A stretch of 64,000 nt of DNA from Minisyncoccota bacterium (GCA_021734995.1 JAIPHX010000003.1:75969-139968), one strand, 5' to 3'; numbered from the stretch's first letter, positions 5,996 to 26,692 are shown. Translations and numbers: made by a program. The notes: a model not told the origin generated them from the sequence alone.

Positions 5996-6041
5996 CCCAC
6001 GCAAATAGTAATGGCCTCATAGTCATCACCATTTGCGTGGG
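5996..6041. promoter_or_regulatory. 11-bp perfect inverted repeat cccacgcaaat / atttgcgtggg (24-bp spacer)
   Basis: Seen directly. A third copy of cccacgcaaa sits at 6137..6146, abutting the ATG of the 6147 gene. A second hairpin gtatcctc-gaaa-gaggatac is at 6064..6083. Confidence 0.5.
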
Positions 6042-6146
6042 TCCATATTCGAAAGAGTATGGGGTATCCTCGAAAGAGGATACCAGATGGTCTGTGAGGC
6101 CTTTACTGTTTTCACAACCATATTATAAATTAAAAACCCACGCAAA

Positions 6147-7902: not shown

Positions 7903-9468
7903 ATGAAAATAAAGAAAATACAACTTATAAATTTTAAGAGATTTGATGATTTGACAATTGATTTAGGGAATATGCCTAAAAAGATTATTGCTTTAGTCGG
8001 CCCCAATGGATCAGGAAAAAGTTCGGTTTTTGATGCATTTGAAGAAAAACTTAAAAACTATAAGGGGACACATCAACAAGAACACGCTTCTTTTTTTGCT
8101 AAACTTTATTTTTCGATTTTTCCTGAAAAGAAAAGTGAATCTTATAATAAAGAAAATTCTATAAAAATAGAAAATGACAATAATAATGAATTTAATAAAA
8201 AAAGTTTTTACATAAGAACAGCCTATCGATTTACTTCAAGATTACAGGTAGATAATTTGAGAAAATTACCTGATGTGATTGATGATGTTAATAGGCCTTA
8301 TAGCTCAAATGCTATGGATAATAGATTGCAGGAAAATTATGAACGGATGTTAAGTAAAGCCTTTCAAGAATTTTTTAATGACACTTCTGGCAAGACGGGT
8401 TTAGTAACAAGAAAGGAACTTATTGATAAAATCAATAATATTTTAGGTAATATTTTAGATATTAAAATATCAAACATTGGTGATGTAACTCAAGGAAAAG
8501 GGCAATTGTTCTTTGAAAAAGAAAGTTCAAAAGATTTTCCTTTTGAAAATCTATCTTCTGGTGAAAAAGAGGTGGTAGATATTATTATAGATTTAATTAT
8601 AAAAACCCCAGAATATGATAACACTGTTTATGCTATAGATGAGCCTGAATTACATCTTAATACTAGCATTCAAAGAAAATTATTGATTGAAATTGAAAAA
8701 CTTATTCCTGATAATTGTCAGATATGGGTAGCGACACACAGTGTGGGATTTTTAAGATCCTTACAAGAAGAACTAAAAGAAAAATCCCAAATAATTGATT
8801 TTTCAGAAAAAGATTGTTTTAATGGAACTCAAACTGCTTACCCAATCAAAACAACTAGACAAAACTGGCAAAGAATTTTTCAAACTGCCCTAGAAGACCT
8901 CACTGGATTAGTAGCTCCAGAAGTAATAATTTATTGTGAGGGTAGACCGGACCCAACAAATTCAGGAGGAGAACAAGGGTTAGACGCAAGTATTTATAAC
9001 TTAATTTTTGGAGAAACTAACCATAATACATTATTTGTCTCGAGTGGAGGAAATGATGTAATTGCTAATTCTACCCTAGCATTAAAAATAATAACTAAAG
9101 CATTTACTAAAGTAAAATTATTTCTACTTAAGGATCGTGACGATCTAACTGAGCAGGAAAGAATCGATTTTCTTGGTGCTTCAAGTAGTAATAAGATGTT
9201 GGAAAGAAGAGAAATAGAAAATTATGTTTTTGACTATGAGATACTAAATGCCTACGCAGTTTCAATAAGTAATAATATAAATAAAACGGATTATGATAAA
9301 ATTGTAACTGATATAGAAAATCAAGATCTTAAATTAGGAACTACTATGGTGGATTTACAAAAATTAGTAAATGGTAAAGGTTCTTTGGAGAGTTTCAAAA
9401 TAGAGTTGTCAAAATTCATAATTCCTACCACAGAAGTATATAAAAGACTTTACACAGTAATTTTTTAA
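7903..9468 (+). CDS. OLD/PARIS-like ABC ATPase fused to Toprim/DUF4435-like domain
   Basis: N-terminal IKKIQLINFKRF. Walker A GPNGSGKSS, signature-like LSSGEKE, Walker B VYAIDEPELHLN (the DEPExHLHP hallmark of AAA_21/OLD), H-loop ATHS. The C-terminus carries a Toprim-like Glu (IIYCEG), DxD (LKDRDDL) and a terminal EIENYV. Confidence 0.65.
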   Translation: MKIKKIQLINFKRFDDLTIDLGNMPKKIIALVGPNGSGKSSVFDAFEEKLKNYKGTHQQEHASFFAKLYFSIFPEKKSESYNKENSIKIENDNNNEFNKKSFYIRTAYRFTSRLQVDNLRKLPDVIDDVNRPYSSNAMDNRLQENYERMLSKAFQEFFNDTSGKTGLVTRKELIDKINNILGNILDIKISNIGDVTQGKGQLFFEKESSKDFPFENLSSGEKEVVDIIIDLIIKTPEYDNTVYAIDEPELHLNTSIQRKLLIEIEKLIPDNCQIWVATHSVGFLRSLQEELKEKSQIIDFSEKDCFNGTQTAYPIKTTRQNWQRIFQTALEDLTGLVAPEVIIYCEGRPDPTNSGGEQGLDASIYNLIFGETNHNTLFVSSGGNDVIANSTLALKIITKAFTKVKLFLLKDRDDLTEQERIDFLGASSSNKMLERREIENYVFDYEILNAYAVSISNNINKTDYDKIVTDIENQDLKLGTTMVDLQKLVNGKGSLESFKIELSKFIIPTTEVYKRLYTVIF

Positions 9469-9470
9469 TT

Positions 9471-10499
9471 ATGGCATATCCACTTATAATTTTTGGAGCA
9501 GGAGCATCTCATGATTTTTCACCCTTAGGGAAAATGGCCCCTCTTACTAATGATCTCGCAGAAGATCAATTTATTCATTCTGGATTTCTTGAAAAATACA
9601 AAGGGGCAGGAAATTTATTAGTAGAAATAATCAATCAAGTAAAAAGTCGCAAAAGAAATTTTGAAGAAGTTTTGACTGAAATACAGAATGATTCCATAAA
9701 ATCTGAGGCTATGCGAAGACGATTCGTAGATTTTGAATTTTATTTAAGAGATTTGTTTTCTTATATTTCAAAACCACATGACTTAAATCGTAAAATACAT
9801 CAAGCTAATAATTATCATGCAATAATAAATCGCATTGATACTTATACAAACGGGAAAGCGTTAATAGCAACATTTAATTATGATTCTTTATTTGAAAATA
9901 GTCTTAGCTCCTTAAAACCAAAAAACATGAGAGATTATATTTCAAGTGATATTAAAATTATTAAATTGCATGGTTCTCATGATTGGGGTTATATTAGAAG
10001 AACATCAGAAATGGAAAGAAAGCATCTTGGTATAAAAGATGGCTATGAACTTTCCATAAAAGAACCTGACATTCTTAAGGAAATTAAAGAGGGTAAATAT
10101 GACCCATATCATATTCAAGAAATAGAAGAAAATGCTGAAAAAAATGATTTTAACTCATTTCCTGCTATAGCTATTCCTTTGATAGGGAAAGATAAATATG
10201 TATGTCCGACTCAACATATTAAAGTTTTTGAACAACATTTACCACAGATAGATAGAGTTTTAATTGTTGGTTGGAGAGCAGAAGATCCATTACTACTTGA
10301 AACACTGAAAAATAATTTACCAAAAGAAGGAGGATATAAAGTTCTTGTTGTTTCTTGGACACTTGAAGGGGCTCAAAAAATAGCCAAGAAAGTTAAAGAA
10401 GGTCTTGGTATTCTTAATGATTTTTATGTTCAAGCCAGAGGAAATGGTTTTTCAACATTTATGGCGGATGAAGCTTCAAAGATTTTTTTCTCTCAATAA
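9471..10499 (+). CDS. SIR2-like (SIR2_2/DHS-like NAD-binding) domain protein
   Basis: LIIFGAGASHDF at the N-terminus. ATFNYDSLFE and IIKLHGSHDW match the TTNYD...KLHGS hallmarks of defence-associated SIR2_2 domains. Starts 3 nt after the ATPase gene. Confidence 0.6.
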   Translation: MAYPLIIFGAGASHDFSPLGKMAPLTNDLAEDQFIHSGFLEKYKGAGNLLVEIINQVKSRKRNFEEVLTEIQNDSIKSEAMRRRFVDFEFYLRDLFSYISKPHDLNRKIHQANNYHAIINRIDTYTNGKALIATFNYDSLFENSLSSLKPKNMRDYISSDIKIIKLHGSHDWGYIRRTSEMERKHLGIKDGYELSIKEPDILKEIKEGKYDPYHIQEIEENAEKNDFNSFPAIAIPLIGKDKYVCPTQHIKVFEQHLPQIDRVLIVGWRAEDPLLLETLKNNLPKEGGYKVLVVSWTLEGAQKIAKKVKEGLGILNDFYVQARGNGFSTFMADEASKIFFSQ

Positions 10500-12461: not shown

Positions 12462-12538
12462 ATCACTTAGCTAAAGCTATAAGATTATTGATTGTATTCA
12501 AATGATATTCAGGATCGGGATATAAAGTAGCCCAGTCA

Positions 12539-12648
12539 AAAGTTCGAAATGCACACCTCCATTCGAGCAAAATAAAACGTAGAGAATACGCTGATACATA
12601 TAGAGTTAAAAGTGTGAAATATCCTACCTGTGAACAGGGTTCGAACTT
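12539..12648 (+). repeat. cassette-boundary repeat copy R1 (variant 5' half)
   Basis: aagttcgaaatgcacacctccattcgagcaaaat ... cagggttcgaactttt. It shares a ~70-bp upstream extension (gatattcaggatc...) with copy 13201..13275. Confidence 0.65.
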
Positions 12649-13143
12649 TTACAATAACTTCCTAACTCTTTCAGTAAATGTATTCATATGGTAATGAAGT
12701 GGAAAAGGTACAAGCACTCCATTGTTTACAACGTTGAACCCGTCCTCGAGGAGAGGTTTTTCTAATAATCTACAAATGTTAGATTTGACTAAAATGATAG
12801 GTATCTGTTTGTCGCCTATAATAGATCGCAAATCATTCTTGAAGTTTTCGTAATTAGACAAAATAAGTTTGTCCGCTTCTTTATCTGAGAGTTTATTAAC
12901 CGGGGTGTAAATTGGATTAACTAACAAATATCCCTTACTAGCCAATTTCTTCAAACCCTCATCTTTGTTGGTGGGAGAGAAATCTATAACGGCTTTCATA
13001 AAGGCACGAAACAATACTTCCGAAACACGTCCACTTGGATCGTAAAAATAACCGTGACCTGCTGGCGGGGACTCTAATACAAAAATAGCCTTAATCTTTT
13101 TAGGTAGATATTTATTCCGTAGAGAAACATAGTCCGTGTCCAT
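12649..13143 (-). CDS. hypothetical protein (inverted cassette)
   Basis: 164-aa ORF on the opposite strand to most cassettes. No motif recognised. Confidence 0.45.
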   Translation of the reverse strand: MDTDYVSLRNKYLPKKIKAIFVLESPPAGHGYFYDPSGRVSEVLFRAFMKAVIDFSPTNKDEGLKKLASKGYLLVNPIYTPVNKLSDKEADKLILSNYENFKNDLRSIIGDKQIPIILVKSNICRLLEKPLLEDGFNVVNNGVLVPFPLHYHMNTFTERVRKLL

Positions 13144-13200
13144 ATAAGTATTATATAAAAATTAGCGTGCCAAAGCGATTAGTCTGTCGATTTGCCCTAA

Positions 13201-13275
13201 GTGATATTCAGGATCTGTGTATACACCAACCCAATCAAAAGTTCGAAATGCGTCCCTCCACTCGAGCCAACAAAT
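13201..13275 (+). repeat. cassette-boundary repeat, 5' half-copy
   Basis: gtgatattcaggatctgtgtatacaccaacccaatcaaaagttcgaaatgcgtccctccactcgagcc. No 3' GTTCGAACC partner. Confidence 0.55.
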
Positions 13276-13278
13276 TTT

Positions 13279-14163
13279 TTAAAAATTAATAAAATAGTTT
13301 TTCTTATTAAACCATTTATCATACCAAGGGCTCGGGTCTTTATTTTCTTTTCCATAATAATGCCAAAGGTCATTCAGGGCACAATGAGCAAAAAGAAGTT
13401 TTCTGTCTATTTTTTCTCCTTTCAATTTTTCGTACTCAAGAACCATAGCTATTCCTAGATCAATATCATAACGACCCATTAATTGACGAAAATCAACTTC
13501 TGGATGGTCTAAACAAACATTTCCAAAATCTATTAATCCATTAAATTTATAAGAAGTAGTATCTATTATAATATTCTTCCAATGAAAATCACTATGAGTT
13601 AAAACTAGATTACTCTCAGAAAGAGAAAGCTCAATAATCTGACTAATTTCTGTAATTAGTTTTCCTATATTTTCCGACTTATCTTTATAACTATTTATAA
13701 TACTTGCCTGATGTTGTCTTTTTGTATGATAGTTTTTATTGGGACAAGACTGAAGATCTATATTAATTTTTTGACTATGAAATTCATACAAAAAAGAACC
13801 TAGTTGTTTACCTAGCTCTTTTTTCTTCTCTTCGTCCATTTTGAATAAAAATGGTTTAAGTATCTCTCCTTTAATTAGATTTGATAAATAACAATTGAAA
13901 TTCGAGTTACGATAAATCAATTCAGGCATGTGATGCATTTTCCCATTTAAAGATTCAAGAATAGCACTCTCTGTATTAATATCATTTACCTCTATTCCTT
14001 TTGGGTTTTTCTTAGCTACCTTAAGTACATACTGATTATCGATTAAAAATATTTCATTTGCGTTTCCTTCAGCAAAAGATTCTATTTTCCCAACAGGATT
14101 AATTAAATTCAATTCATCTATTTTTTGAACTATTTTTTTAATTTGATCCATTTCTAATGCCAT
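13279..14163 (-). CDS. aminoglycoside/antibiotic phosphotransferase-like kinase (APH/choline-kinase fold)
   Basis: Brenner motif LTHSDFHWKNIII and IDFGN (the HxDxxxxN...DFG pattern of the APH family). Confidence 0.65.
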   Translation of the reverse strand: MALEMDQIKKIVQKIDELNLINPVGKIESFAEGNANEIFLIDNQYVLKVAKKNPKGIEVNDINTESAILESLNGKMHHMPELIYRNSNFNCYLSNLIKGEILKPFLFKMDEEKKKELGKQLGSFLYEFHSQKINIDLQSCPNKNYHTKRQHQASIINSYKDKSENIGKLITEISQIIELSLSESNLVLTHSDFHWKNIIIDTTSYKFNGLIDFGNVCLDHPEVDFRQLMGRYDIDLGIAMVLEYEKLKGEKIDRKLLFAHCALNDLWHYYGKENKDPSPWYDKWFNKKNYFINF

Positions 14164-14440: not shown

Positions 14441-14528
14441 AAGTTCGGAAAGCAGACTCCCACGCGAGCAGAGTTTAACCCATATTTTATAAAGGTTATT
14501 TTTCGGAGGTTAGTATAAGTTCGAACCT
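14441..14528 (+). repeat. cassette-boundary repeat copy R2
   Basis: aagttcggaaagcagactcccacgcgagcagag ... cccatattttataaaggttatttttcggaggttagtataagttcgaacct. A degenerate 5' half also sits at 14203..14230. Confidence 0.7.
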
Positions 14529-14576
14529 AAGTATATAGTGCTACTTACAGTGGGATAAATATGATAAGATAAAAAA

Positions 14577-15062
14577 ATGACAGAAGAATTTTCAAAACCT
14601 AATTTTAATTTAGAAAATATAATTGATCAAAAAATATTTGATAAAAATAGGAATTTTCATGGAGTAAAAGGTCTTGTTTTTATCGGTGATAAAATTCTTA
14701 CATACAGAAGAGATACTAAAACAAAAAGTTTTCCACTATATATAGATTTACCTGGTGGTGGTAAAGAAGAAGGTGAATCGCCATTTGATACTTTTAAAAG
14801 AGAGACTAAAGAAGAATTTGGAATTGAAATAAATCCTGATGATGTAAAATATGCAAAACAATATATGAGTGCAATGGATACAACCAAGGAATCATATTTT
14901 ATTGTTGTTAATCCATTAAATATGAAAGAAAGCGATGTAGTTTTTGGAGATGAAGGATTAGAGCCTGTGTTAATTACCCCTGATGAATATTTGAAGTTAA
15001 ATGATGCAATCAAAAGACAACAGGATAAAGTAGTAGATTACCTAGCTACATTTAAAGAGTAG
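14577..15062 (+). CDS. NUDIX hydrolase
   Basis: Nudix box GGGKEEGESPFDTFKRETKEEFGI (Gx5Ex7REUxEExGU). Confidence 0.75.
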   Translation: MTEEFSKPNFNLENIIDQKIFDKNRNFHGVKGLVFIGDKILTYRRDTKTKSFPLYIDLPGGGKEEGESPFDTFKRETKEEFGIEINPDDVKYAKQYMSAMDTTKESYFIVVNPLNMKESDVVFGDEGLEPVLITPDEYLKLNDAIKRQQDKVVDYLATFKE

Positions 15063-15086
15063 ATTATTCTTTCTCTAATATACTCC

Positions 15087-15172
15087 CTCGAACTTCATCC
15101 CAAGTTCGGAGCCATTTTTTGAACCTTAATTTGCAATGGTTATTTTTCGAAGGTTAGTAGAAGTTCGAACCT
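15087..15172 (+). repeat. cassette-boundary repeat copy R3
   Basis: cctcgaacttcatcccaagttcggagcc ... ggttatttttcgaaggttagtagaagttcgaacct. Confidence 0.7.
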
Positions 15173-15196
15173 ACTCTTTATGTTATAATTCCCTTT

Positions 15197-15967
15197 ATGA
15201 AAGAATTTCAGAAACCTATTGGTAGGTTAGATGGCCATACTTTTGTTTTAGGTACTGCTGTCAAAAAAGAAATAATCGGGATTTTGTCAAAAAAATCCTC
15301 TCAAAAAGCAACTCAAGAAACTCTAGCTGCTTTTGTTCCTGAAAGAGTTCGAAGTGTTGCTGTAAATCCAAAAAACATAGAACTCTATCAACTTTCCGAT
15401 GAACAAGGTGAAATTTCAGTACTAGTACTTGAAAAAGATTATCCTACTAAACTAACTGATAAAGAAGAGTATAGTAAGTGGAAACACAATATTGAATTAG
15501 CAAAACAAGTACAAGAAAGAGTAAGATTCAAAATCTTACCTAATGCTCCTACCTCTGTAAACAAACTACATGCAAAATTTAGTTCACTAATTGACTCAGG
15601 ATATTTATCTCTCTCTACTAGAGTCCTTATGTTTACCAAAGTATTATTATACCCAAGCAATCCAGAGGCTTTATTTGTGAAAGATTTTGATGGTGAGACT
15701 CAGCAAGGGATTGGGCAAGATTTTTATAAAAACCAACTCCCAGTATTGGCTAAGAATTTAGGACTAAGGTTTGTTGTAGGACAAAATAATGGCGGAAATT
15801 TTACTTTCTTCAAGGATACACTAGGAAGATATACTCAGGAAGACTTGAAACCAGAATTCAGAGTTGTGCTCTTTCCTGATCATATAAATGATAGATTTTT
15901 TACTATTCAGTTTTTATATCCTGAAGATATTGAGAAATATGTCCAGAAAGAAGCAATTAAGTCTTAA
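15197..15967 (+). CDS. hypothetical protein (cassette)
   Basis: 256-aa ORF between two repeat copies. No motif recognised. Confidence 0.45.
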   Translation: MKEFQKPIGRLDGHTFVLGTAVKKEIIGILSKKSSQKATQETLAAFVPERVRSVAVNPKNIELYQLSDEQGEISVLVLEKDYPTKLTDKEEYSKWKHNIELAKQVQERVRFKILPNAPTSVNKLHAKFSSLIDSGYLSLSTRVLMFTKVLLYPSNPEALFVKDFDGETQQGIGQDFYKNQLPVLAKNLGLRFVVGQNNGGNFTFFKDTLGRYTQEDLKPEFRVVLFPDHINDRFFTIQFLYPEDIEKYVQKEAIKS

Positions 15968-15976
15968 GTAATACCA

Positions 15977-16062
15977 TTCGAACATCACCCCAAGTTCGGA
16001 GCAGAATTTCAAACCATATTTTATAAAGGTTATTTTTTGGAGGTTAGTAGAAGTTCGAACCT
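15977..16062 (+). repeat. cassette-boundary repeat copy R4 (near-consensus)
   Basis: ttcgaacatcaccccaagttcggagcagaatttcaaaccatattttataaaggttattttttggaggttagtagaagttcgaacct. The -10 tgatataat (16065..16073) follows, with a GTG start at 16080. Confidence 0.75.
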
Positions 16063-16079
16063 AATGATATAATTCCTTT

Positions 16080-16532
16080 GTGAATAATTTTCTCCAGCAA
16101 GCAATAGAATTATCAAAAAAATCTATCGAACAAGGAGGTTTTCCTGTTGGTGCTCTAGTGGTAAAAGATGAGGTCATAATCTCTGAAGGACTTAGTGACG
16201 GAAAAAATAGAAAGGACGCTACTAGCCACGCGGAGATCGAAGCAATAAGAAACGCCTCAATTAAATTAGATACTCGTGACTTAAAAGGTTGTGAAGTATA
16301 CTCTTCGATGGAACCTTGTCTTATGTGTTTTTCTGCTTGTTATTGGGCAAAAATAACAAAGATAGTATATGCCGTCGGAAAGGATAAACTTTCCAAGCAA
16401 CATTATGAAGGATTACATTCAATTGAAAATATCAATACAGAAAATAACAGGCAAATTGAAATTATTCATATCAAAGAATTAGAAAACGAAGCTCTTTCCC
16501 TTATCCAAGATTGGGAAAAGAATCTAAGATAG
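16080..16532 (+). CDS. CMP/dCMP-type zinc deaminase (TadA/guanine deaminase-like)
   Basis: HAEIEAI ... SSMEPCLMCFSAC zinc-binding motifs (H-A-E, PCxxC). GTG start. Confidence 0.7.
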   Translation: MNNFLQQAIELSKKSIEQGGFPVGALVVKDEVIISEGLSDGKNRKDATSHAEIEAIRNASIKLDTRDLKGCEVYSSMEPCLMCFSACYWAKITKIVYAVGKDKLSKQHYEGLHSIENINTENNRQIEIIHIKELENEALSLIQDWEKNLR

Positions 16533-16535
16533 CCA

Positions 16536-16621
16536 TTCGAATATCATTCCAAGTCTAGAGTCAACAAAATCACCTTATTTTACACGGTGATTTTTTCCTA
16601 CCTTGATATAAGTTCGAACCT
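16536..16621 (+). repeat. cassette-boundary repeat copy R5 (central terminator hairpin)
   Basis: ttcgaatatcattccaagtctagagtc-aacaaaatcacc-ttattttacac-ggtgatttttt-cctaccttgatataagttcgaacct. A 9-bp stem plus T-run sits in the variable core. Confidence 0.7.
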
Positions 16622-16649
16622 AAATGTTTTTTGTGTATAATATAAATAT

Positions 16650-17534
16650 ATGAAAAAACAGAAATTGGGATTTATTGGGCTTGGCCTGATGGGAAAATAT
16701 ATGACTCTTAATTTACTCAAAAACAAGTATCAAGTCGTCGGGTATAATCGTTCAAAGAAGGTATTAAATGAATTAAAAAAATCAGGTTTAATTATTGCTC
16801 AAAATCCTAAAGAGATAGCTCTTAGAAGTGAAATTATAATTTTAATGTTGCCGAGCTCAAAAGAAACAGGTGAGGTTATTTTCGGCAAGAGTGGATTAAT
16901 TGAGGGTTTAAGAAAGGGGCAGGTTGTTATTGATATGAGCACTTCTAACCCCGCAGAAACTAAAAAGATAATGGAAGTTTTGAAAAAGAAAGGTGTGTTT
17001 ATGATGGATGCTCCAGTGTCTAGGGGGCAAAAAGCAGCAGTCGCAGGAGTTCTGTCTATAATGGTTGGTGGTGATAAAAAGATTTTTAATAAATGTTTAC
17101 CAATTTTTAAAGCAATGGGGGAGTATGTAGTATATTTAGGATCTTTTGGTTCCGGGTTGTATGTGAAAGCATTAAATAACTTTCTTTTTGCAATGAACTT
17201 ATTGGCAAGTAGTCAGGGATTGATGATGATAAAGAAAAATAAGATAGATTTAAAAAAGGCAATAGAAGTTATTGAAGAGAGTTCAGGAAATAATACAGCT
17301 CTATCTCCATCTATTAAAAATCGTCTTGGTGAAAAACATCCTTCTATTGGTTTTTATCTTAAACATATGGCTAAGGATATGAAGATATTTAACGATGTTG
17401 TAAAAGATCAAAAGATCTACAATACTCTTGCAAAACCCGTTTCTGACTTTTTCGCAAAAATGGCAAAGTTGCACACTGGTAAAGATTCAATGTATTTGTT
17501 TGAGCATTATGTGGTAAAAAGCAATAAAAAATAG
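16650..17534 (+). CDS. NAD-binding 3-hydroxyisobutyrate/6-phosphogluconate dehydrogenase-family oxidoreductase
   Basis: N-terminal Rossmann motif LGFIGLGLMGKYM. Overall length and layout fit the HIBADH family. Confidence 0.6.
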   Translation: MKKQKLGFIGLGLMGKYMTLNLLKNKYQVVGYNRSKKVLNELKKSGLIIAQNPKEIALRSEIIILMLPSSKETGEVIFGKSGLIEGLRKGQVVIDMSTSNPAETKKIMEVLKKKGVFMMDAPVSRGQKAAVAGVLSIMVGGDKKIFNKCLPIFKAMGEYVVYLGSFGSGLYVKALNNFLFAMNLLASSQGLMMIKKNKIDLKKAIEVIEESSGNNTALSPSIKNRLGEKHPSIGFYLKHMAKDMKIFNDVVKDQKIYNTLAKPVSDFFAKMAKLHTGKDSMYLFEHYVVKSNKK

Positions 17535-17566
17535 TATTTACCACTTATTTTTTTCCATTAAACTTA

Positions 17567-17652
17567 TTCGAACATCACCCCAAGTTCGGAGCAAAATTTT
17601 CGCCCATATTTTATAAAGGTTATTTTTCGGAGGTTAGTAGAAGTTCGAACCT
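17567..17652 (+). repeat. cassette-boundary repeat copy R6 (consensus)
   Basis: ttcgaacatcaccccaagttcggagcaaaattttcgcccatattttataaaggttatttttcggaggttagtagaagttcgaacct. Confidence 0.75.
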
Positions 17653-17738
17653 AAATATATATATTGATACCCACTGTGGGGGAAATATGATAAATTTTGC
17701 ACATATTCTACATAGGCGTGAGATGATATAATGAGACC

Positions 17739-18299
17739 ATGAAACAAGTACTTGGTCTTAGAAAGGGATTTGTTAAGATAGAAAAATATAATCCCTTGTG
17801 GCAAAAAGAGTTTGACAAAGAAAAGAAAAACTTGAAAAAAATTTTTGGTGATGTTTCTCTATCAATAGAACATGTAGGATCTACTTCAGTTGTAGGCTTG
17901 TCTGCAAAACCAATAATTGATATTGCTATTGGAGTTGATTCACTAAAAGACATAGCACAAGTTAAAGAGAAAATATTAAAGTTCTCGCATTATTCGATCA
18001 AGGAAAATAACGCAGATGGTGAAATCCTTATGAGAAGAGGTGTGCCAATAAAGTTGGGTGAAGATAAACCAAATTTTATAACTCATTTTATTCACATTAT
18101 GGAAATAGATAGCAGGAAATATAAGGAAACACTAATATACCGTGATTATCTAAGAAAAAATAAAGAAGTCCTAAAAGAATATGATAATCTAAAGAAAAAG
18201 TTGGCTATAAAATACCAGAAAGAAAGAAAATCTTATACTAAAGCAAAGGATGAGTACATCAAAAGTATTTTAAGTAAGTGTAATAGCTCGAATTTATAG
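17739..18299 (+). CDS. GrpB-family (nucleotidyltransferase-fold) protein
   Basis: HVGSTSVVGLSAKPIIDIAIGV matches the GrpB/UPF0157 signature. Confidence 0.6.
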   Translation: MKQVLGLRKGFVKIEKYNPLWQKEFDKEKKNLKKIFGDVSLSIEHVGSTSVVGLSAKPIIDIAIGVDSLKDIAQVKEKILKFSHYSIKENNADGEILMRRGVPIKLGEDKPNFITHFIHIMEIDSRKYKETLIYRDYLRKNKEVLKEYDNLKKKLAIKYQKERKSYTKAKDEYIKSILSKCNSSNL

Positions 18300-18411
18300 T
18301 ACTGATTTGTAGCTAGACCCTTCTTACTACAACTTATTCGTAAAACTTATTACAGTATTACGATACTTACGATATATTTATATATCTTTTATTTATCATT
18401 CAATATCTCTT

Positions 18412-18497
18412 GTCGAACATCATCCCAAGTTCGGAGCAAAGTTTTAAGCAATATATCCCAATGGTTAGTCTTCTTACCTTAGTAAAAGTTCGAACCC
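18412..18497 (+). repeat. cassette-boundary repeat copy R7
   Basis: gtcgaacatcatcccaagttcggagcaaagttttaagcaatatatcccaatggttagtcttcttaccttagtaaaagttcgaacc. Confidence 0.7.
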
Positions 18498-18556
18498 CAT
18501 TGATACTTGCACGGTTTTACTAATGTGATATAATAGGCGTATCACTATGAAGAAGA

Positions 18557-18595
18557 CCCTTATGTAGATTCGTCTACATTGGGGGCTTTTTCTTT
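18557..18595 (+). terminator. rho-independent terminator hairpin (bidirectional context)
   Basis: cccttatgtaga-ttcg-tctacattgggg is a ~11-bp stem followed by ctttttcttttt. It is preceded by promoter-like tgtgatataat (18522..18532) and a tiny ORF (MKKTLM). Confidence 0.5.
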
Positions 18596-19078
18596 TTAGG
18601 CTTTATTTGAGAATTTGTGGTAGTGGTCGTTTAAGAAGGTTATTTCTGTATTTTTATTTCTCAATAAAATAGAGCACTTCTTCTCATCTGGAGCAATAAT
18701 GCAATCCATCGATTTATTTTCTTTTAGAAATTCTACTAAACACCCAAAGTCACCATCTCCTGTTATTAAGATACAAGAATTAAATGATTTAGTATAAAAA
18801 TCAGATGTGGCTTTTAGCACAAGCTCAGCGTCGCAATTTCCTTTTATTTTCTCTCCGATAGATACAGTTTGCTTAAAAATTAAAATATAACCGCACTTTT
18901 GAAGATGTTCATAGAACTTTGTCCTCTCTGGTACTAGCCCAATGAATAGATATACAATCCCTGGATTATATTTTTGACGGAGCCAGCCACGAAATTTTTT
19001 ATAATCAATCTCGAATCCCAGTTCCTTGGCTGATCTGTATAAGTTATTTCCATCAATGTAAATGTTTGCCTTGTTCAT
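18596..19078 (-). CDS. NYN/LabA-like PIN-fold domain protein (inverted cassette)
   Basis: IYIDGNNLY at the N-terminus and ILITGDGDF match the conserved acidic motifs of the NYN domain. Confidence 0.6.
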   Translation of the reverse strand: MNKANIYIDGNNLYRSAKELGFEIDYKKFRGWLRQKYNPGIVYLFIGLVPERTKFYEHLQKCGYILIFKQTVSIGEKIKGNCDAELVLKATSDFYTKSFNSCILITGDGDFGCLVEFLKENKSMDCIIAPDEKKCSILLRNKNTEITFLNDHYHKFSNKA

Positions 19079-19120
19079 TACGTAATTATATCACCCCTTA
19101 ATCCTTTAACAATATACTTA

Positions 19121-19206
19121 TTCGAACATCACCCCAAGTTCGAAGTCAACAAAATCACTTTATTTTACAATGTGATTTTTTATTACTTTAATAGGAATTC
19201 AAATCT
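19121..19206 (+). repeat. cassette-boundary repeat copy R8 (central terminator hairpin, degenerate 3' end)
   Basis: ttcgaacatcaccccaagttcgaagtc-aacaaaatcac-tttattttacaa-tgtgattttttatt...ggaattcaaatct. The -10 atgatataat and an ATG at 19223 follow. Confidence 0.7.
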
Positions 19207-19222
19207 ATGATATAATTTTTGC

Positions 19223-20086
19223 ATGAATGTTGATTTAAAAAAGTTAGGGGAGTCATTGAAAGAAGTTTTTCTTAATCAGGAAAAGTTTGAGATGGATTTA
19301 GTGATCAAAGAATTTAATGGTGCAGATTTTCTTTTCTTTTATATTTATGAGTCACAAGATGATGCATCTCCAATATTTTATTTTATTCTAAGTCCATGGG
19401 ATGCTAAATCAAAGGTTGCACCGCAAGGGGCACAAGTATTCAAAGGTGGCAAGTTAATTTTTCAAACTGATTATACTGAGTATGTAAAAATACGTACTGG
19501 ACTAATGGACGCTTTTGCCCTTCAAGCTATTGGGAAAGATCCATCAAATGCACGTATACTTTATATAGGAGCTGGTGGAGTGGCTGGTTGGTCATTACGT
19601 GCTCTTAAAACATATTTTCCAAAAATCACTAACATAGATTACAAAAATGAAACAAATGGTCAACTAATCTTTGAGGAAATAGGGAAAGAAATTGGTGTTA
19701 AAACAAAATTTATAGATAAGCCAGATTTTGGTGAATATGATTATATTTTTATGCACACTAATTCACGTGAACCAGTACTTTTAGAAGATGATGTACAGAA
19801 ATTAAAAGATGGTGCATTTATTTCAATTTTCAGTGATAAAAATGAAGCAGTCCTTGATGTATACAAAGATGCAACTATATTAGTAAACTGGCTTGATAGT
19901 TTTGAGAAAGAATCAGATCTAATAGAAGGGAAGTCAAAAGGGATTATTGACCCAACACAAGCAATAACAATACGTCATCTTTTAGAAGGCGGAACATTAC
20001 CCACTAAACATCATATTGTTTTCCGTTCTGGTGGTACGCCTATGCAAAACGTTGCAATGCTTAAGTATTTAATGATGAAGGAGTAG
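19223..20086 (+). CDS. hypothetical protein with Rossmann-like GxGGxxG motif
   Basis: ILYIGAGGVAGWSL suggests dinucleotide binding. Otherwise unassigned. Confidence 0.4.
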   Translation: MNVDLKKLGESLKEVFLNQEKFEMDLVIKEFNGADFLFFYIYESQDDASPIFYFILSPWDAKSKVAPQGAQVFKGGKLIFQTDYTEYVKIRTGLMDAFALQAIGKDPSNARILYIGAGGVAGWSLRALKTYFPKITNIDYKNETNGQLIFEEIGKEIGVKTKFIDKPDFGEYDYIFMHTNSREPVLLEDDVQKLKDGAFISIFSDKNEAVLDVYKDATILVNWLDSFEKESDLIEGKSKGIIDPTQAITIRHLLEGGTLPTKHHIVFRSGGTPMQNVAMLKYLMMKE

Positions 20087-20095
20087 ATAAATATA

Positions 20096-20192
20096 TTCTA
20101 ACGTTCTCCCAAGTCCGAAGCAAAATCTCTAACTTTATTTCATAAGGAATTTTTTTCCTACAATTTTAGGAACTATTGCGAAGTTTGAACCT
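20096..20192 (+). repeat. cassette-boundary repeat copy R9 (degenerate)
   Basis: ttctaacgttctcccaagtccgaagcaaaatctc ... ggaactattgcgaagtttgaacct. The -10 tgataaaat and an ATG at 20213 follow. Confidence 0.6.
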
Positions 20193-20212
20193 GTGATAAA
20201 ATTATTGACAAT

Positions 20213-20608
20213 ATGAAACAATCAATTGCTCTTACATCGTTAGTTGTTGCAGATTACGATGAGGCTATTAATTTTTATACAAAAAAACTTCATTTTTCTT
20301 TAATTGAAGATACATATCAACCAGAAGAAAATAAGAGATGGGTAGTTGTTGCTCCACCAGGTTCTTCTAGTTCTCAGCTTCTATTAGCAAAAGCATCTAC
20401 ACCTGAACAAAAATTATTTATCGGTAATCAAACTGGGGGAAGAGTATTTCTTTTTCTAAATACTGATGATTTTTGGAGAGATTATAAAGAAATGATTTCT
20501 GTGGGAATTGAATTTGTGAGAGAACCCAAGACTGCTTCTTTTGGGACATTTGCTGTCTTTAAGGACTTGTATGGAAATTTATGGGACTTAATTGAGGTAA
20601 AAAAATAG
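20213..20608 (+). CDS. VOC-family (glyoxalase/bleomycin-resistance fold) protein
   Basis: 131 aa. Paired beta-alpha-beta-beta-beta modules. The C-terminal FGTFAVFKDLYGNLWDL is typical of VOC proteins. Confidence 0.6.
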   Translation: MKQSIALTSLVVADYDEAINFYTKKLHFSLIEDTYQPEENKRWVVVAPPGSSSSQLLLAKASTPEQKLFIGNQTGGRVFLFLNTDDFWRDYKEMISVGIEFVREPKTASFGTFAVFKDLYGNLWDLIEVKK

Positions 20609-20893: not shown

Positions 20894-20924
20894 AACTCAT
20901 TTAATTTTATCCAAAAAGGTTCTC

Positions 20925-21010
20925 ACTTCGTCTAGTAGAGGGAGCAAAATTTTAAGCCATATTTTATAATGGTTACTTTTTGCTATTTTTTTTTGCAAAA
21001 GTTCCTGCCT
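20925..21010 (+). repeat. cassette-boundary repeat copy R11 (degenerate)
   Basis: cttcgtctagtagagggagcaaaattttaagccatattttataatggttactttttgc ... gcaaaagttcctgcct. Confidence 0.55.
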
Positions 21011-21036
21011 GAATTATTTTGGTGTATAATTTAAAA

Positions 21037-21573
21037 ATGGAAACAATAATAGAAAAAGCAAAAAGATTTGCAAAAGAAGCTCATAAAAATCATTCAGAGA
21101 ATGATTCACTTAAAACACCTTATTTCTTCCATCTACAGAGAGTTGCTAGATTGGTTCAATTATCTGGTGGAACAGATGAAGAAATCGCTTCTGCGTGGCT
21201 TCATGATACGGTAGAAGATACTGATGTAACAATTGAAGATATACAAAAAGAGTTTGGTGACAATATAGCAAGTATTGTTAACGGACTAACAGACCTACTT
21301 GAATGGAGTAAACTTTCTATTTCAGAAAAAAAATTAGCCCAAGCAGAAAGGATTTCCAACGAAAATGATTCTGTAAAACGAGTTAAGATTGCTGACCAAA
21401 TCTCTGGTAGTGAATTAGATGCTAGAAATCTTCTTATAAGCAAGCAAGATAGATTGGAAAGTTTTGAAGGTGTTAAAAAGGTTGCTAGTGCTTGTAATGG
21501 AGTTAGTCAAGGTCTTGATGATTTATTTTCTGAAATAAGCGAAGAGATAGACTGGTATTTAGCGAATAGCTAG
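21037..21573 (+). CDS. HD-domain metal-dependent phosphohydrolase
   Basis: HLQRVARL ... WLHDTVEDT gives the H...HD...D motifs. Start moved to the ATG at 21037 (METIIEKAKRF), because the track start at 21019 would include the tgtataat promoter. Confidence 0.65.
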   Translation: METIIEKAKRFAKEAHKNHSENDSLKTPYFFHLQRVARLVQLSGGTDEEIASAWLHDTVEDTDVTIEDIQKEFGDNIASIVNGLTDLLEWSKLSISEKKLAQAERISNENDSVKRVKIADQISGSELDARNLLISKQDRLESFEGVKKVASACNGVSQGLDDLFSEISEEIDWYLANS

Positions 21574-21581
21574 AATAGCTA

Positions 21582-21666
21582 TTCGAACATCCTCTAAAGT
21601 TCGGAGCATTGCAAATATTCTCATTTTTCAGGGGTATTTTTTCTACTTTATAACAAGTGCTAACCT
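21582..21666 (+). repeat. cassette-boundary repeat copy R12
   Basis: ttcgaacatcctctaaagttcggagcattgcaaatattctcatttttcaggggtattttttctactttataacaagtgctaacct. Confidence 0.65.
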
Positions 21667-21683
21667 GTGGTAGAATTAAAATT

Positions 21684-22247
21684 ATGCAAAATAATGTATT
21701 TATATTCCACGGAACTGAAGGATACCCAGAAGAAAACTGGTTTCCTTGGCTAAAAGAAAAACTTGAAGCAAAAGGTTGTAATGTTATTGTGCCACAATTT
21801 CCAACTTCTCCAGTAGTGCCTGCTAAAATAGCAGAATGGTTTGAGGTCCTAAAAGGTTATGAGCAGTATATAAATGAAGATACAATTTTAATTGGTCATA
21901 GTTTAGGTGGCGTATTTGCTCTAAGAGTATTAGAACAATTAAAACATCCAGTCAAAGCAGTTTTTCTAACAGGAACACCAATAGGAGTAAAACCAATTCT
22001 TAGTTATGATAGGGATAATAGTTTTGGTGGTTTTAATTTTGATTGGCAAAAGATTAAAACTAACGCTAAACATTTTGATGTTTTTCAATCAGACAATGAC
22101 CCTTATGTTTCTTTAGGGAATGGAGAACAATTAGCTAAAAAATTAGGTGTTGAGCTTACTTTTATACCAAATGCTGGGCACTTTAATAAAAAAGCAGGAT
22201 ACTTAAGTTTTCCTGATTTATTAACTAAGATTGAAACAATTTTATGA
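21684..22247 (+). CDS. alpha/beta hydrolase (YdeN/RBBP9-like serine hydrolase)
   Basis: Nucleophile elbow GHSLGG, catalytic-region Asp and a C-terminal His (NAGHFN). Start moved to the ATG at 21684 (MQNNVFIFHG), downstream of the tggtagaat -10. Confidence 0.6.
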   Translation: MQNNVFIFHGTEGYPEENWFPWLKEKLEAKGCNVIVPQFPTSPVVPAKIAEWFEVLKGYEQYINEDTILIGHSLGGVFALRVLEQLKHPVKAVFLTGTPIGVKPILSYDRDNSFGGFNFDWQKIKTNAKHFDVFQSDNDPYVSLGNGEQLAKKLGVELTFIPNAGHFNKKAGYLSFPDLLTKIETIL

Positions 22248-22649: not shown

Positions 22650-23251
22650 AATTAGTTCTGAGCATTGGTGTTGCTTTTGTAATACATCTATTATTTGGTA
22701 TAATTAATGTTATGAAAAATAACAAAGGTTCAGTGTTAGTTATTGTATTAACAATGGCGTTATTGGTTGCTGTTGGGGGTGTTATATATTATGCAGGTAA
22801 GAGTTCAAAAACTATTCCTTTTGTAGAGGAAAATAATCTACTACAAGAGAATCAAGGTAATGTTGTAAATAATCCAGTAAACAATAATACAACAACAGTA
22901 ACAACTACAACAACTACAGTTGCAACTCCTTCTATTACAGTTCTTTCTCCAAATGGTGGAGAATCATATACTACTAGTACTACCATTAAACAGATTCCAG
23001 TAACATGGAAAAGTTCTGGTATTGTAAGTCGTAATGTTGCCATATATGTTAAAAATGTTTCTACTGGGAATGAAGCACCTATTTTAGTAGCTCCTGATAA
23101 CGGCTCAACAGAAATTTACGGTATTCCTTCTGGAAATTATAAAATAAGAATTTGTAATACTAATGCCCAATCAGGAAATTTTGAGGTTGTATATAACCCA
23201 GATTGTTCCTCTGCTTCTGATTATTCTGATAATTCATTTACAGTTCAATAG
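22634..23251 (+). CDS. membrane-anchored protein with Thr-rich linker
   Basis: Two N-terminal TM helices, a TTTVTTTTTTVATP linker and a beta-rich extracellular domain. Overlaps the previous ORF by 16 nt. Confidence 0.45.
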   Translation: MGKRIKLVLSIGVAFVIHLLFGIINVMKNNKGSVLVIVLTMALLVAVGGVIYYAGKSSKTIPFVEENNLLQENQGNVVNNPVNNNTTTVTTTTTTVATPSITVLSPNGGESYTTSTTIKQIPVTWKSSGIVSRNVAIYVKNVSTGNEAPILVAPDNGSTEIYGIPSGNYKIRICNTNAQSGNFEVVYNPDCSSASDYSDNSFTVQ

Positions 23252-23339
23252 GTATAAGTAATTTAACAAAAAGACCCATTGTAAGGTACCCCATTTTTAA
23301 TACTAAAAGTTAACCTTTAATCCATGTTATAATTAAATT

Positions 23340-23627
23340 ATGGTTAAACATATTTTACTTTTTAAATTCAAGCAAGGAGTAAGCGAAGAGGAAAAGAATA
23401 AAGGAATAGAAATGCTTAGATCATTAAAAGAAAAAGTTCCTGAAATTAAGGAATGGGAGATAGGAATACAGAGAGAGAAATCAGAAAAATTCTATGATTT
23501 TGCCCAAGTATCTTCTTTTGAAAATATTGAAGATATAAAAAGGTTTGGTGAAAATCCAGAACATGAAAAAGTTAAGGCATATCTAAAAGAAAGAGCAGAT
23601 TGGGTAAAGGTTGATTATGATTTTTAA
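23340..23627 (+). CDS. Dabb (stress-responsive dimeric alpha+beta barrel) protein
   Basis: 95 aa. MVKHILLFKFKQGVSEEEK ... fits the Dabb domain. Confidence 0.55.
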   Translation: MVKHILLFKFKQGVSEEEKNKGIEMLRSLKEKVPEIKEWEIGIQREKSEKFYDFAQVSSFENIEDIKRFGENPEHEKVKAYLKERADWVKVDYDF

Positions 23628-24284: not shown

Positions 24285-24430
24285 AAATTTTATTAATATT
24301 AATTACTTTTCTAATACATATATATTAACCTAAATACTAAAAAATTCATAAAAATTAAACATCTTCTTTTTTCGCTAAATAACTTGGAATATTCGCTTTA
24401 GTTTCATCTTTGGTGAGATGGGACTGTCTC

Positions 24431-24501
24431 ATGTTTGGATCCTAATTTAAAGTCATATATTTTAATGGTTATTTTGCCTACCTAAGTAGCAGTTCAAACC
24501 C
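24431..24501 (+). repeat. cassette-boundary repeat copy R14 (3' half conserved)
   Basis: catgtttggatcctaatttaaagtcatatattttaatggttattttgcctacctaagtagcagttcaaaccc. The -10 tgatataat and an ATG at 24518 follow. Confidence 0.6.
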
Positions 24502-24517
24502 ATGATATAATACTAAA

Positions 24518-24865
24518 ATGTTTAATAAAAAAAATATACAAAATATACCAACAGAGCAAACCTCACATAACTCTGGTTCTAGAAAGATGTTGACTACCAA
24601 AGAAGAAGTTGACTCTAGGTGCTTTGAAGCTTTTACTTACGGGTTTTTACCACCAAAAGAAAAATGGGTAATGCACAAACATGAAAATATTGTTGAAATA
24701 TGTTTGGTAGTAAAAGGGTCTGGTGTTATCAGAAACTTAAAAGGGGAAACAGAAAAATTTGAATCTGGAGACAGATTTATTTTCCCCTCTGACATAGAAC
24801 ATGAAATAGAAAATCTTTCGGAGGAGACAGCAGAATTTTATTTTTTTAGGATTCAATGTATTTAA
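24518..24865 (+). CDS. cupin-domain protein
   Basis: HKHENIVEICLVVKGSG ... GDRFIFPSDIEHEIEN gives the two cupin motifs. Confidence 0.6.
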   Translation: MFNKKNIQNIPTEQTSHNSGSRKMLTTKEEVDSRCFEAFTYGFLPPKEKWVMHKHENIVEICLVVKGSGVIRNLKGETEKFESGDRFIFPSDIEHEIENLSEETAEFYFFRIQCI

Positions 24866-24871
24866 GACTTA

Positions 24872-24956
24872 TTCGAACATTGTCCAAAGTATAGAGCCTG
24901 TGAATCACTTTTATCTTCAAGGCAACTTTTACCTACCTTTGTAGAAGTTCGAACCT
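24872..24956 (+). repeat. cassette-boundary repeat copy R15
   Basis: ttcgaacattgtccaaagtatagagcctgtgaatcacttttatcttcaaggcaacttttacctacctttgtagaagttcgaacct. Confidence 0.7.
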
Positions 24957-24972
24957 ATGATAAAATCATCAT

Positions 24973-25668
24973 ATGAAAAAAACACCAGAACAAGCATTAG
25001 AAGAAATATTTGATGAGTATAAAGATCAAGGCCTCATCTCCCTATATTTATATGGTTCAATTTTAACAAAAGATTATATTGAAGGTGCGAGTGATATTGA
25101 TTCAATTGGTTTTGCCACTGAAGAAATGTCAATTACTCTTGAAAATGAAATAAAAAATAAATTGTGTGAAAAAACTGGTTTTGAACAATTTGGTTTTAGA
25201 CTTTTATATAAATCTGAATTAGATACAGGGGTCATAAAAGGCAATTTAGCAAGTTTCATTCATCCACAGTTATTGCTTCTTGATTTTCCACATTGGAAAT
25301 ATGTAATTGGTAAAAACTTTCTGAGGTCAGATTTTTTACTAGTAGATATTGATGCAATTGGGGCTGTAAAAATTAGGTTAGATCACTTAGTAAGAATTGA
25401 AAATGAGTCATTTAAAACACATCCAGGGGGTAAACACATTTTGTTTTTAAAAGTTTTAGCTCGGATAATGTTTCATTTACAAAAAGAACGAGGTTGTAAT
25501 GACCCTTTTTCATATAGTTCAGTATTTTCTAATTCAAACGAGGAAGAAAAACCAGTTGCCGAAGCAATCCTTAACTGTAAAAAAAGTAAATGGGATGAAT
25601 CTATGTTCAAGGAAAATGTGACTATTTATAAAAACTATATTGATACTCTGAGGAGTCGTTATTTATAG
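24973..25668 (+). CDS. ANT-like nucleotidyltransferase (putative aminoglycoside/lincosamide adenylyltransferase family)
   Basis: LYLYGSILTKDYIEGASDIDSIGF matches the GS-x9-DxD polymerase-beta-like NTase motif seen in ANT(9)/AadA/Lnu enzymes. Confidence 0.55.
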   Translation: MKKTPEQALEEIFDEYKDQGLISLYLYGSILTKDYIEGASDIDSIGFATEEMSITLENEIKNKLCEKTGFEQFGFRLLYKSELDTGVIKGNLASFIHPQLLLLDFPHWKYVIGKNFLRSDFLLVDIDAIGAVKIRLDHLVRIENESFKTHPGGKHILFLKVLARIMFHLQKERGCNDPFSYSSVFSNSNEEEKPVAEAILNCKKSKWDESMFKENVTIYKNYIDTLRSRYL

Positions 25669-25683
25669 AACCTATCATATTCA

Positions 25684-25769
25684 GTCGAACATTGTTCCAA
25701 GTTTGGAGTAGAATTTAAAGCCATATTTTACAATGGATATTTTGGGTACCTTTTTATGCTTTGAAACCT
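25684..25769 (+). repeat. cassette-boundary repeat copy R16
   Basis: gtcgaacattgttccaagtttggagtagaatttaaagccatattttacaatggatattttgggtacctttttatgctttgaaacc. The -10 tggtataat and a leaderless ATG at 25786 follow. Confidence 0.7.
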
Positions 25770-25785
25770 TTGGTATAATAAAATT

Positions 25786-26379
25786 ATGAAAACTGAAATT
25801 GAAGCTAAATTTTTAAATATTGATGTTGAAAAAATAAGAACTAAATTAAAAGAAATTGGTGCTGTTTTAAAATATCCAGAAAGATTCATGAAAAGAAAGG
25901 TTTTTGATTACCCAGATGAAAGATTAAAAAAAGAAGGGGCATGGATTCGTGTTAGAGATGAGGGAGATGAAAAGATAACTTTGAGTTATAAGAAACTTAT
26001 AGATAGAACTCTTAATGGAACAAAAGAAATAACCTTAGATGTAAGCAATTTTGAAACTATGTGTGATTTTCTTCAGGCATGTGGTTTTGATAGTAAATCG
26101 TATCAAGAAACTAAAAGAGAAAAATGGATGATCGGAAATTCAGAAATTACGATTGATACATGGCCTTGGATTCCAACATTCGTAGAAATAGAATCTGAAA
26201 CAGAAGAAGAAATACATAGAACTTCGGACCTGCTTGGTTTTGATTGGAATAAAGCTTTTCATGGAAGCGTAGAAACAGCTTACCAAGATGTATTTGATGT
26301 TACAGAAGATGAGGTTGATGGATGGGAAGAGATTACTTTTATTCCTGTCCCAGATTGGTTAGAAATTAAGAGAAAATAG
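25786..26379 (+). CDS. CYTH-domain protein (class IV adenylate cyclase / triphosphatase family)
   Basis: N-terminal EIEAKF (ExExK) signature. Acidic residues recur through the tunnel fold. Confidence 0.65.
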   Translation: MKTEIEAKFLNIDVEKIRTKLKEIGAVLKYPERFMKRKVFDYPDERLKKEGAWIRVRDEGDEKITLSYKKLIDRTLNGTKEITLDVSNFETMCDFLQACGFDSKSYQETKREKWMIGNSEITIDTWPWIPTFVEIESETEEEIHRTSDLLGFDWNKAFHGSVETAYQDVFDVTEDEVDGWEEITFIPVPDWLEIKRK

Positions 26380-26606
26380 TATTTATTCACATTTCTTTCC
26401 AAGCGCAGAACAAACAGTGAATCCTAATTTAGATGGGTGCATTTCTTGTTGCGGTAATCTCCCATATATTTCTTGGACGTCGTTTTTCCTCCATAAATAG
26501 TTTAATCAAGAAATAATCTTAGTGATTTTTATAGATTATGCTAAAGATAATAATTAATTAAACAATACACTCGGGTTAGGGAACACTTCATTCCACTCTA
26601 TAGCCC

Positions 26607-26692
26607 CTAAGTTATCCTTCCAACAATCGAGCCCTTTTTCTATACATATCTCCACATACTTGTTTGATCTACCTAAGTAGAAGGGTGAACCT
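26607..26692 (+). repeat. cassette-boundary repeat, last (degenerate) copy
   Basis: ctaagttatccttccaacaatcgagcc ... acctaagtagaagggtgaacct. The -10 tggtatagt and an ATG at 26709 follow. A further degenerate 5' half sits at about 26395..26430. Confidence 0.5.

Follow-up and report, generated by a model that had tools for sequence, protein, structure and literature searches.

This analysis revealed that the gene cassettes of a Patescibacteria array are probably complete, portable transcription units which give rise to leaderless mRNAs in a host that appears to do without Shine-Dalgarno (SD) initiation. The underlying observation, a -10-like box at a nearly fixed distance before the start codons, is real and lies far above chance in the window, i.e. 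the whole stretch of 64,000 nucleotides that was analysed. In the explanation that we favour, translation initiation in this Patescibacteria/CPR-type host would be independent of SD pairing, and a leaderless mRNA would serve for the first gene of each transcription unit. The -10 box (TGnTATAAT), of the sigma-70 type and in many cases extended, would act 6-7 nt before the start codon; at this spacing, RNA polymerase would be expected to begin with the first base of ATG or GTG, the ribosomes then presumably initiating on the 5'-terminal AUG or GUG. Each cassette of about 0.4-1 kb would begin with its own -10 box and start codon, at or shortly past GTTCGAACCTA, and would close with a site of about 90 nt, whose covarying hairpin and T-run probably terminate transcription. 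In such an SD-free host, a promoterless cassette placed behind a structured site of 85-135 nt would be untranslatable; a cassette would be of use only with a promoter of its own.

The arrangement can be followed at the repeat copy located at 15974-16063 on the plus strand (nhmmer E=1e-23, and alignments), which runs from TTCGAAC through GGAGCA and a hairpin with a T-run to GTAGAAGTTCGAACCTA, its final bases being GTTCGAACCTA. On its 3' side are found a TG at 16065-16066, TATAAT at 16068-16073, six further nucleotides and a GTG at 16080, which together make up TGATATAAT-N6-GTG (16065-16082, plus strand), an extended -10 box with the start of a gene of the dCMP/cytidine deaminase family (16080-16532). 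The protein opened by this GTG has 150 aa, and we take GTG 16080 as the true start because the Pfam deaminase domain is aligned from residue 3 and the next methionine lies past the catalytic motif.

An HMM built from the window copies detected 14 copies of this site, all on the plus strand and all within 14.4-26.7 kb. Besides the copy described above, they are located at 14441-14529, 15084-15173, 16533-16622, 17564-17653, 18409-18498, 19118-19207, 20093-20193 (with a small insertion), 20917-21011 (with a diverged R' end), 21579-21667, 24413-24502 (with a diverged 5' part), 24869-24957, 25681-25770 and 26604-26693 (the last site, its 5' part also diverged); remnants consisting of R'' only occur at 14204, 20624 and 23649. 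The site, about 90 nt long, comprises TTCGAAC...CCCAAGTTCGGAGCA, a hairpin of 6-7 bp followed by a T-run, and (GGAGG or CCTACC)TTAGTAGAAGTTCGAACCTA. The units between the copies mostly contain a single gene and measure about 0.4-1 kb, most cassette genes are co-oriented with the sites, and the products are accessory enzymes (NUDIX, deaminase, dehydrogenase, GrpB, NYN, glyoxalase, HD, hydrolase, Dabb, cupin, nucleotidyltransferase and CYTH proteins). A conserved element, TATAGTGATACCCACTGTGGGGGAAAT, lies directly 3' of some sites, before the -10 box of the gene itself (14535-14560 and 17660-17685 in the window, and in the related loci L003, L009 and L063). Two copies, 74% identical, of a 102-nt element (12470-12571 and 13169-13270) are located downstream of the minus-strand genes 12649-13143 and 13279-14163; they contain AAGTTCGAAATGC...CCTCCAYTCGAGC and resemble diverged site halves.

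The central hairpin of the site was paired in 85% of cells over 36 copies, and five of its six pairs showed changes on both sides, counts which were made on a hand-specified structure after RNAalifold had predicted no consensus structure from the same 36 copies. Its stems include GCCAT/ATGGT, CACCT/AGGTG and ACCCTT/AAGGGT; they are short and AT-rich (about -5 to -9 kcal/mol), ATTTTT stands 3' of the hairpin, and most copies have both hairpin and T-run. A generic terminator scan of the array did not call the site hairpins. On this pattern, the hairpin likely terminates transcription.

With regard to the promoters, the sequence-only reading had assigned to every cassette an extended -10 element immediately after the repeat, followed 5-15 nt later by a start codon. 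Its eight -10-like examples were all found exactly as given. A box matching at least five of six positions, 5-9 nt upstream of the start, was present in 17 of the 20 separately placed array genes, one of them on a reverse-oriented cassette, and TGN precedes most of the good boxes, as in extended -10 promoters. The general statement thus holds for most cassettes but not for every one. The position directly 3' of the repeat was correct at eight of the 14 sites, the box lying 10-75 nt further downstream elsewhere, and the real spacers are narrower than proposed: 6 or 7 nt nearly throughout, 8 nt in two cases and 10 nt in a single one.

Boxes that adjoin a site open the genes starting from TGATATAAT-N6-ATG at 19208-19225, TGATATAAT-N6-ATG at 24503-24520 (cupin), TGATAAAAT-N6-ATG at 24958-24975 and TGGTATAAT-N6-ATG at 25771-25788 (CYTH), all on the plus strand. 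Further plus-strand boxes of the array are TGTTATAAT-N7-ATG (15181-15199), GTGTATAAT-N8-ATG of the NAD_binding_2 dehydrogenase (16633-16652; Rossmann motif from residue 5), TGATATAAT-N6-ATG of the GrpB gene, about 70 nt past its site (17724-17741), TGATAAAAT-N10-ATG of the glyoxalase, with a leader of probably 2-3 nt (20194-20215), GTGTATAAT-N6-ATG of the HD_4 gene, whose true start is 21037 and not TTG 21019 (21022-21039), TGGTAGAAT-N7-ATG of the serine hydrolase, with the true start at 21684 (21668-21686), TGGTATAAT-N7-ATG with the start placed at 22712 (22696-22714), TGTTATAAT-N6-ATG of the Dabb gene (23325-23342) and TGGTATAGT-N6-ATG with the true start at 26709 (26694-26711). The reverse-oriented NYN cassette gene (18596-19078) has its own TGATATAAT-N6-ATG at 19076-19093 on the minus strand, which is kept in four other genomes. 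On the same strand, gene 12649-13143 is preceded by TATAAT-N6-ATG (13141-13158). Three of the 20 array genes are without a good box, namely the NUDIX gene starting at 14577, with its weak 4/6 box in TGATAAGAT-N6-ATG (14562-14579, plus strand), gene 24284 on the minus strand, with a poor box, and a small ORF. Gene 22254 is operon-internal, with a gap of 6 nt.

The start codons on which these distances depend are sound, as judged from protein profiles and a second gene caller. Pfam profile positions 1-6 align at residues 3-12 in nine of the ten proteins checked (GAPDH, Pth, RpiB, deaminase, NAD-binding dehydrogenase, glyoxalase, GrpB, NYN and HD_4), the NUDIX protein being uninformative, with an alignment only from residue 37. 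An independent gene caller, applied to another assembly of the same locus, gave the identical refined starts 21037, 21684 and 26709 and kept a longer ORF where we propose 22712. Close to the NYN gene, a conserved unit of the window contains no long ORF (18499-18595): it consists of TTGCA-N17-TGATATAAT, about 55 nt with a tiny ORF (MKKTLM*), and a strong GC-rich hairpin with a T-run, and it converges on the minus-strand NYN gene. This pair is kept in L046, L002 and L022 and partly in L048, similar sequence being found downstream of sites in L001 and L047, and the unit looks like a small RNA or an antitoxin-type partner of the NYN nuclease.

Since two-hexamer and generic terminator scans are uninformative in an AT-rich genome of 31% G+C, we relied on position-locked tests. 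The exact motif TGNTAWAAT-N6-ATG was counted 13 times in the window, where 0.47 occurrences were expected; none of 100 dinucleotide-preserving shuffles reached this count, and 12 of the 13 are gene starts. A looser motif (TGN, at least five of six TATAAT positions with A2 and T6 required, 5-8 nt, ATG) was present 26 times and led into an ORF of at least 60 codons in 21 cases, whereas 16% of the remaining ATGs do so (odds ratio 22, p about 1e-12). When the array was scanned for both hexamers together (-35/-10), there were fewer matches than in the shuffles and no -35 enrichment, so any -35 element must be weak. The motif is also found outside the array, where 16 of 33 first genes have the box, gap, pth and rpiB among them. 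The two leaderless examples proposed there could both be confirmed: TGATATAAT-N6-ATG of gap (GAPDH; 52800-52817, plus strand, start at 52815), where Gp_dh_N profile position 1 falls at residue 4, and ATGTATAAT-N7-ATG of the ORF at 28285 (28269-28287, plus strand), with TTGACA 18 nt upstream. Others are TGATATAAT-N6-ATG at 30392-30409 and TGTTATAAT-N6-ATG at 44359-44376, both on the plus strand, and TGTTATAAT-N6-ATG of gene 61015-62016 at 62014-62031 on the minus strand. At the level of sequence, the habit of leaderless starts suggested earlier for the whole genome is therefore borne out, and it extends into related CPR genomes.

A scan for the 3' end of the site in one genome per species matched 92 loci, of which about 8 kb each was covered. 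In 48 of these loci, the HMM detected a further 117 copies of the site; nearly all 48 carry the name Paceibacterota, Paceibacteria, Saccharibacteria, Parcubacteria, Peribacteria or Patescibacteria in their titles. Among the 90 site copies with an ORF of at least 60 codons within 200 nt downstream, 44 have a box 5-9 nt before the ATG, with a spacer of 6 nt in 26 of the 44. Of 34 composite motifs in the non-array flanks of these loci (132 kb), 28 lead into long ORFs, whereas 16% of the remaining ATGs do so (odds ratio 25, p about 2e-17). The distance between site end and ATG falls into classes of 15-17 nt, in which the box adjoins the site, of 25-29 nt, with AATNNTTTTGGTGTATAAT, and of 58-69 nt, in which a complete TTGACT-N17-TAATGT promoter is followed by a leader of about 35 nt. 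As roughly a quarter of the cassettes in the relatives belong to this last, leadered class, some cassettes of the family are not leaderless.

Cassettes starting with TTGACTTTACA...TAATGTGAAGAAAAA, with full -35 and -10 elements and a leader of about 35 nt, were seen in 11 related loci (e.g. L077 3267, L070 5004 and L011 6453). In an orthologous pair of this full-promoter class, from L067 and L002, the proteins share 65% amino-acid identity and the leader seems to be more strongly conserved than they are, suggesting a regulatory role for the 5' UTR. Some site copies (L002, L052, L063 and L067) contain a GC-rich insertion between the hairpin and the R' end that forms a strong extra hairpin, as exemplified by GGACCAGCCTGCTCCCGACTAYAGGAGGGCTGGCAGGGG in L002, L052 and L067; one L002 site also contains an insertion that resembles a tRNA fragment. 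In L074 (1541-1640), a tRNA-Cys gene lies directly 3' of a cassette site, in the manner of a cassette.

Comparison of cassettes between genomes shows, as far as sequence can, that the promoter belongs to the cassette. Two orthologous pairs from different genomes, whose proteins share 73% and 76% of their amino acids along the whole length, have a -10 box near the start in both members and differ in sequence upstream of it. In the pair from L083 and L029, the two DNA sequences agree completely from one base ahead of the hexamer up to and including the start codon (ATATAATATAAAAATGAAA); upstream, one cassette adjoins the site, whereas about 10 additional bases are present in the other. The NYN cassette (18499-19117) shows 68-76% DNA identity to cassettes between sites in four other genomes, with both promoter boxes conserved. 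In the abutting class, a TTAGTA or TTTGTA hexamer lies 17 nt before the -10 box and the site sequence just upstream is constant, and the site may thus supply a weak -35 element. Downstream sites were slightly more alike between orthologous cassettes in six of seven comparisons, a sample too small to rely on.

With regard to the genomic setting, the array lies downstream of a tRNA-Asn(GUU) gene (2129-2450, plus strand) that carries a group I intron in its anticodon loop (Rfam RF00028) and is missed by ARAGORN. The link to tRNA-Asn was found in 10 related loci besides the window: ARAGORN placed a tRNA-Asn(GUU) in eight loci, at the first detected site or at most about 2.3 kb from it, the intron-containing form is present in two further loci and in the window, and in five loci the tRNA-Asn 3' end (...CGGAGCA) replaces the 5' half of the first site. 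The idea that the site 5' half is a copy of the tRNA-Asn 3' end was dropped, local alignment giving 6-10 against 5-7 for other tRNAs; the similarity retained between the two consists of TTCGAA and the CGGAGCA junction. In a second assembly, L095, the break falls precisely on the 5' exon-intron junction of the tRNA-Asn, a hint that alleles with and without the intron coexist in the population.

Between the tRNA-Asn and the array lies an inserted element (2437 to about 12540) that carries a large serine recombinase (2437-3993, minus strand), a LOOT RNA (5961-6084) and a gene pair consisting of an AAA_15/AAA_21 ATPase and a SIR2_2-like gene (7903-10499). Its left junction falls exactly 3' of the tRNA ...GAGCA. 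A recombinase with 53% identity is located in L051 (6304-7920), exactly 3' of ...GGAGCA in a cassette site. The GAGCA^AAATTTT core of the sites thus seems to be the target of elements of this type, which concern the array, not its promoters.

The array is integron-like in layout and gene content, and we do not file it as an integron, owing to the failure to find a tyrosine recombinase in the regions searched, a weak L helix, an uninformative R box, the tRNA-Asn link and the fact that a literature search found no report of integrons or such arrays in CPR. The terminal inverted 7-mers TTCGAAC and GTTCGAA follow the AAC...GTT rule of attC R''/R' boxes. The R-box helix is paired in 88% of cells over 36 copies, which is uninformative because each box is itself palindromic and almost invariant. 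L''/L' pairing was found in 44% of cells, the GGAGG variants pairing and the CCTACC variants not, and single-copy DNA folds of the sites were weak, with z-scores of -0.2 to -3.1. A tblastn search with IntI1 (an approximate query sequence) gave no hit at E<=1 in the window and the 92 loci. Neither a scan of 20 window ORFs nor one of the adjoining 8.5 kb on the upstream side revealed an IntI-type recombinase, and the array units carry no integrase. In a Pfam search of 105 ORFs of at least 230 aa from the 48 related loci, no tyrosine recombinase family reached two members, the sole recurrent recombinase being the large serine recombinase. Neither attI nor Pc was found, and Rfam returned nothing relevant on the array, also at a permissive threshold. 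The boxes of 17 of the 20 array genes do not agree with the classical picture of promoterless cassettes. Of the contrast drawn earlier with integron cassettes that depend on Pc, the possession of putative own promoters stands; membership among integrons is not established, given the missing IntI, the tRNA-Asn link and the weak L-box pairing.

These results bear on the alternative that survives best, although we consider it unlikely: the promoters would be real and the units not site-specifically mobile, the element of about 90 nt being a conserved module of terminator and promoter context in a hypervariable tRNA-Asn island that is shuffled by homologous recombination. This would agree with the identical cassettes carried by the other assemblies with the locus, in which no gain or loss was seen, with the modest L-box pairing, and with the lack of a dedicated recombinase in the window, the 8.5 kb upstream and the 48 loci, barring the occasional large serine recombinase. 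It fits poorly with 14 copies that all point in one direction and are confined to the array, with the occurrence of the NYN cassette between such sites in several genomes, with the conserved pair of inverted 7-mers at the site ends and with the homology of orthologous cassettes, which breaks sharply between the site end and the -10 box. Beyond the portable units that we favour, a broader proposal can be made tentatively, and we hold it as possible rather than probable. It describes a widespread, tRNA-Asn-linked cassette system of Patescibacteria, integron-like in layout yet of a separate kind: without IntI, its sites would serve as transcription punctuation (a terminator plus the upstream promoter context of the next unit), each cassette would consist of a -10 box and a leaderless ORF moved by some recombinase, and the sites would be hit by large-serine-recombinase elements.

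A less probable alternative, to which we give little weight, concerns the box itself, which could be an AT-rich element that, like its counterpart in Bacteroidota-type genomes, binds ribosomes or enhances translation within leadered mRNAs independently of SD. The genome is indeed AT-rich, and SD-like 4-mers precede only seven of 79 starts against a background of 9.5%, also at background for internal genes, in agreement with the absence of SD sequences noted earlier; in the absence of SD, internal genes need some other initiation signal. Such a signal would be required by first and internal genes alike, whereas the box is present at 33 of 53 first genes overall and at only four of 25 operon-internal genes (those following a same-strand gene within 40 nt), and it therefore behaves as a promoter rather than as a ribosome-binding signal. 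The TG extension is typical of RNA polymerase contacts, and the fixed spacer of 6-7 nt puts a purine start 7-8 nt downstream. By the published criterion, leaderless transcription is predicted from a -10 box that lies 6-8 nt ahead of first genes and is missing ahead of internal ones, and this criterion separates leaderless genomes from the Bacteroidota-type class (PMC6028130). With the A of ATG placed 7-8 nt past the hexamer, at the usual sigma-70 start site, and with no SD word, the starts look leaderless, as the sequence-only reading had proposed. Internal genes have very short gaps, mostly of -14 to +38 nt, which suggests translational coupling; the site-containing gaps of 85-135 nt would be too long for such operon-like coupling, and a promoter per cassette would therefore be needed.

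That the whole array is read from one upstream promoter like the integron Pc, the boxes being chance products of AT-rich DNA, is scarcely credible: most cassette genes are oriented as the sites are, but the motif is enriched 28-fold with 0 of 100 shuffles reaching its count, the box is kept in orthologous cassettes and found on reverse-oriented ones, terminator-like hairpins with T-runs lie within the sites, and no SD word could restart translation across gaps of 85-135 nt. The cassettes thus look self-expressed, as had been claimed: the box is position-locked, present on the reverse cassette too and retained in orthologues, and the hairpin is terminator-like.

Should transcript mapping agree with leaderless cassette units, a major and mostly uncultivated bacterial radiation would initiate largely without SD, through leaderless mRNAs. 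Our literature search found no published statement on leaderless expression in CPR. If true, this would affect gene-start prediction in thousands of metagenome-assembled genomes and would bear on initiation by the reduced CPR ribosomes. Cassettes without a shared promoter would each bring a minimal promoter at their 5' edge, with a terminator in the site, and every stored gene would be expressible, unlike in the classical integron model. With the array linked to tRNA-Asn and no integron integrase found, it may also be asked by which enzyme the cassettes are moved.

Mobile elements that target integron attC sites exist, namely IS1111-attC elements and group IIC-attC introns. The insertions described here likewise appear to target the sites, but the enzyme is a serine recombinase. 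With regard to leaderless genomes, the closest counterpart is group C of GeneMarkS-2, in which a Pribnow box lies 6-8 nt before the first genes of operons, in about half of the transcription units, as is the case here (PMC6028130). In contrast, the internal genes of group C keep SD sites, whereas SD words are at background here even for internal genes. Group C genomes have a high G+C content, the signature having been reported mainly for Actinobacteria and Deinococcus-Thermus (PMC6028130), and the present genome belongs to a CPR lineage with 31% G+C.

Finally, the array shares several features with sedentary chromosomal integrons and CALINs (attC clusters without an integrase): co-oriented sites of about 90 nt with inverted terminal 7-mers (..AAC / GTT..), mostly single-gene units of 0.4-1 kb, accessory enzymes, and a cassette shared between arrays. 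It differs from integrons in that no IntI, attI or Pc was found, that it lies downstream of tRNA-Asn, with related arrays starting at or near tRNA-Asn, and that it shows leaderless starts, a conserved hairpin and T-run in its sites and poorly conserved L-box pairing. The reference points for expression are classical promoterless cassettes read from Pc and the cassette-borne promoters documented for a minority of cassettes in Vibrio arrays (PMC2945992; 10.1101/2023.11.21.568050). In comparison with the Vibrio arrays, nearly every cassette here, rather than a minority, carries a putative promoter of its own at its 5' edge.
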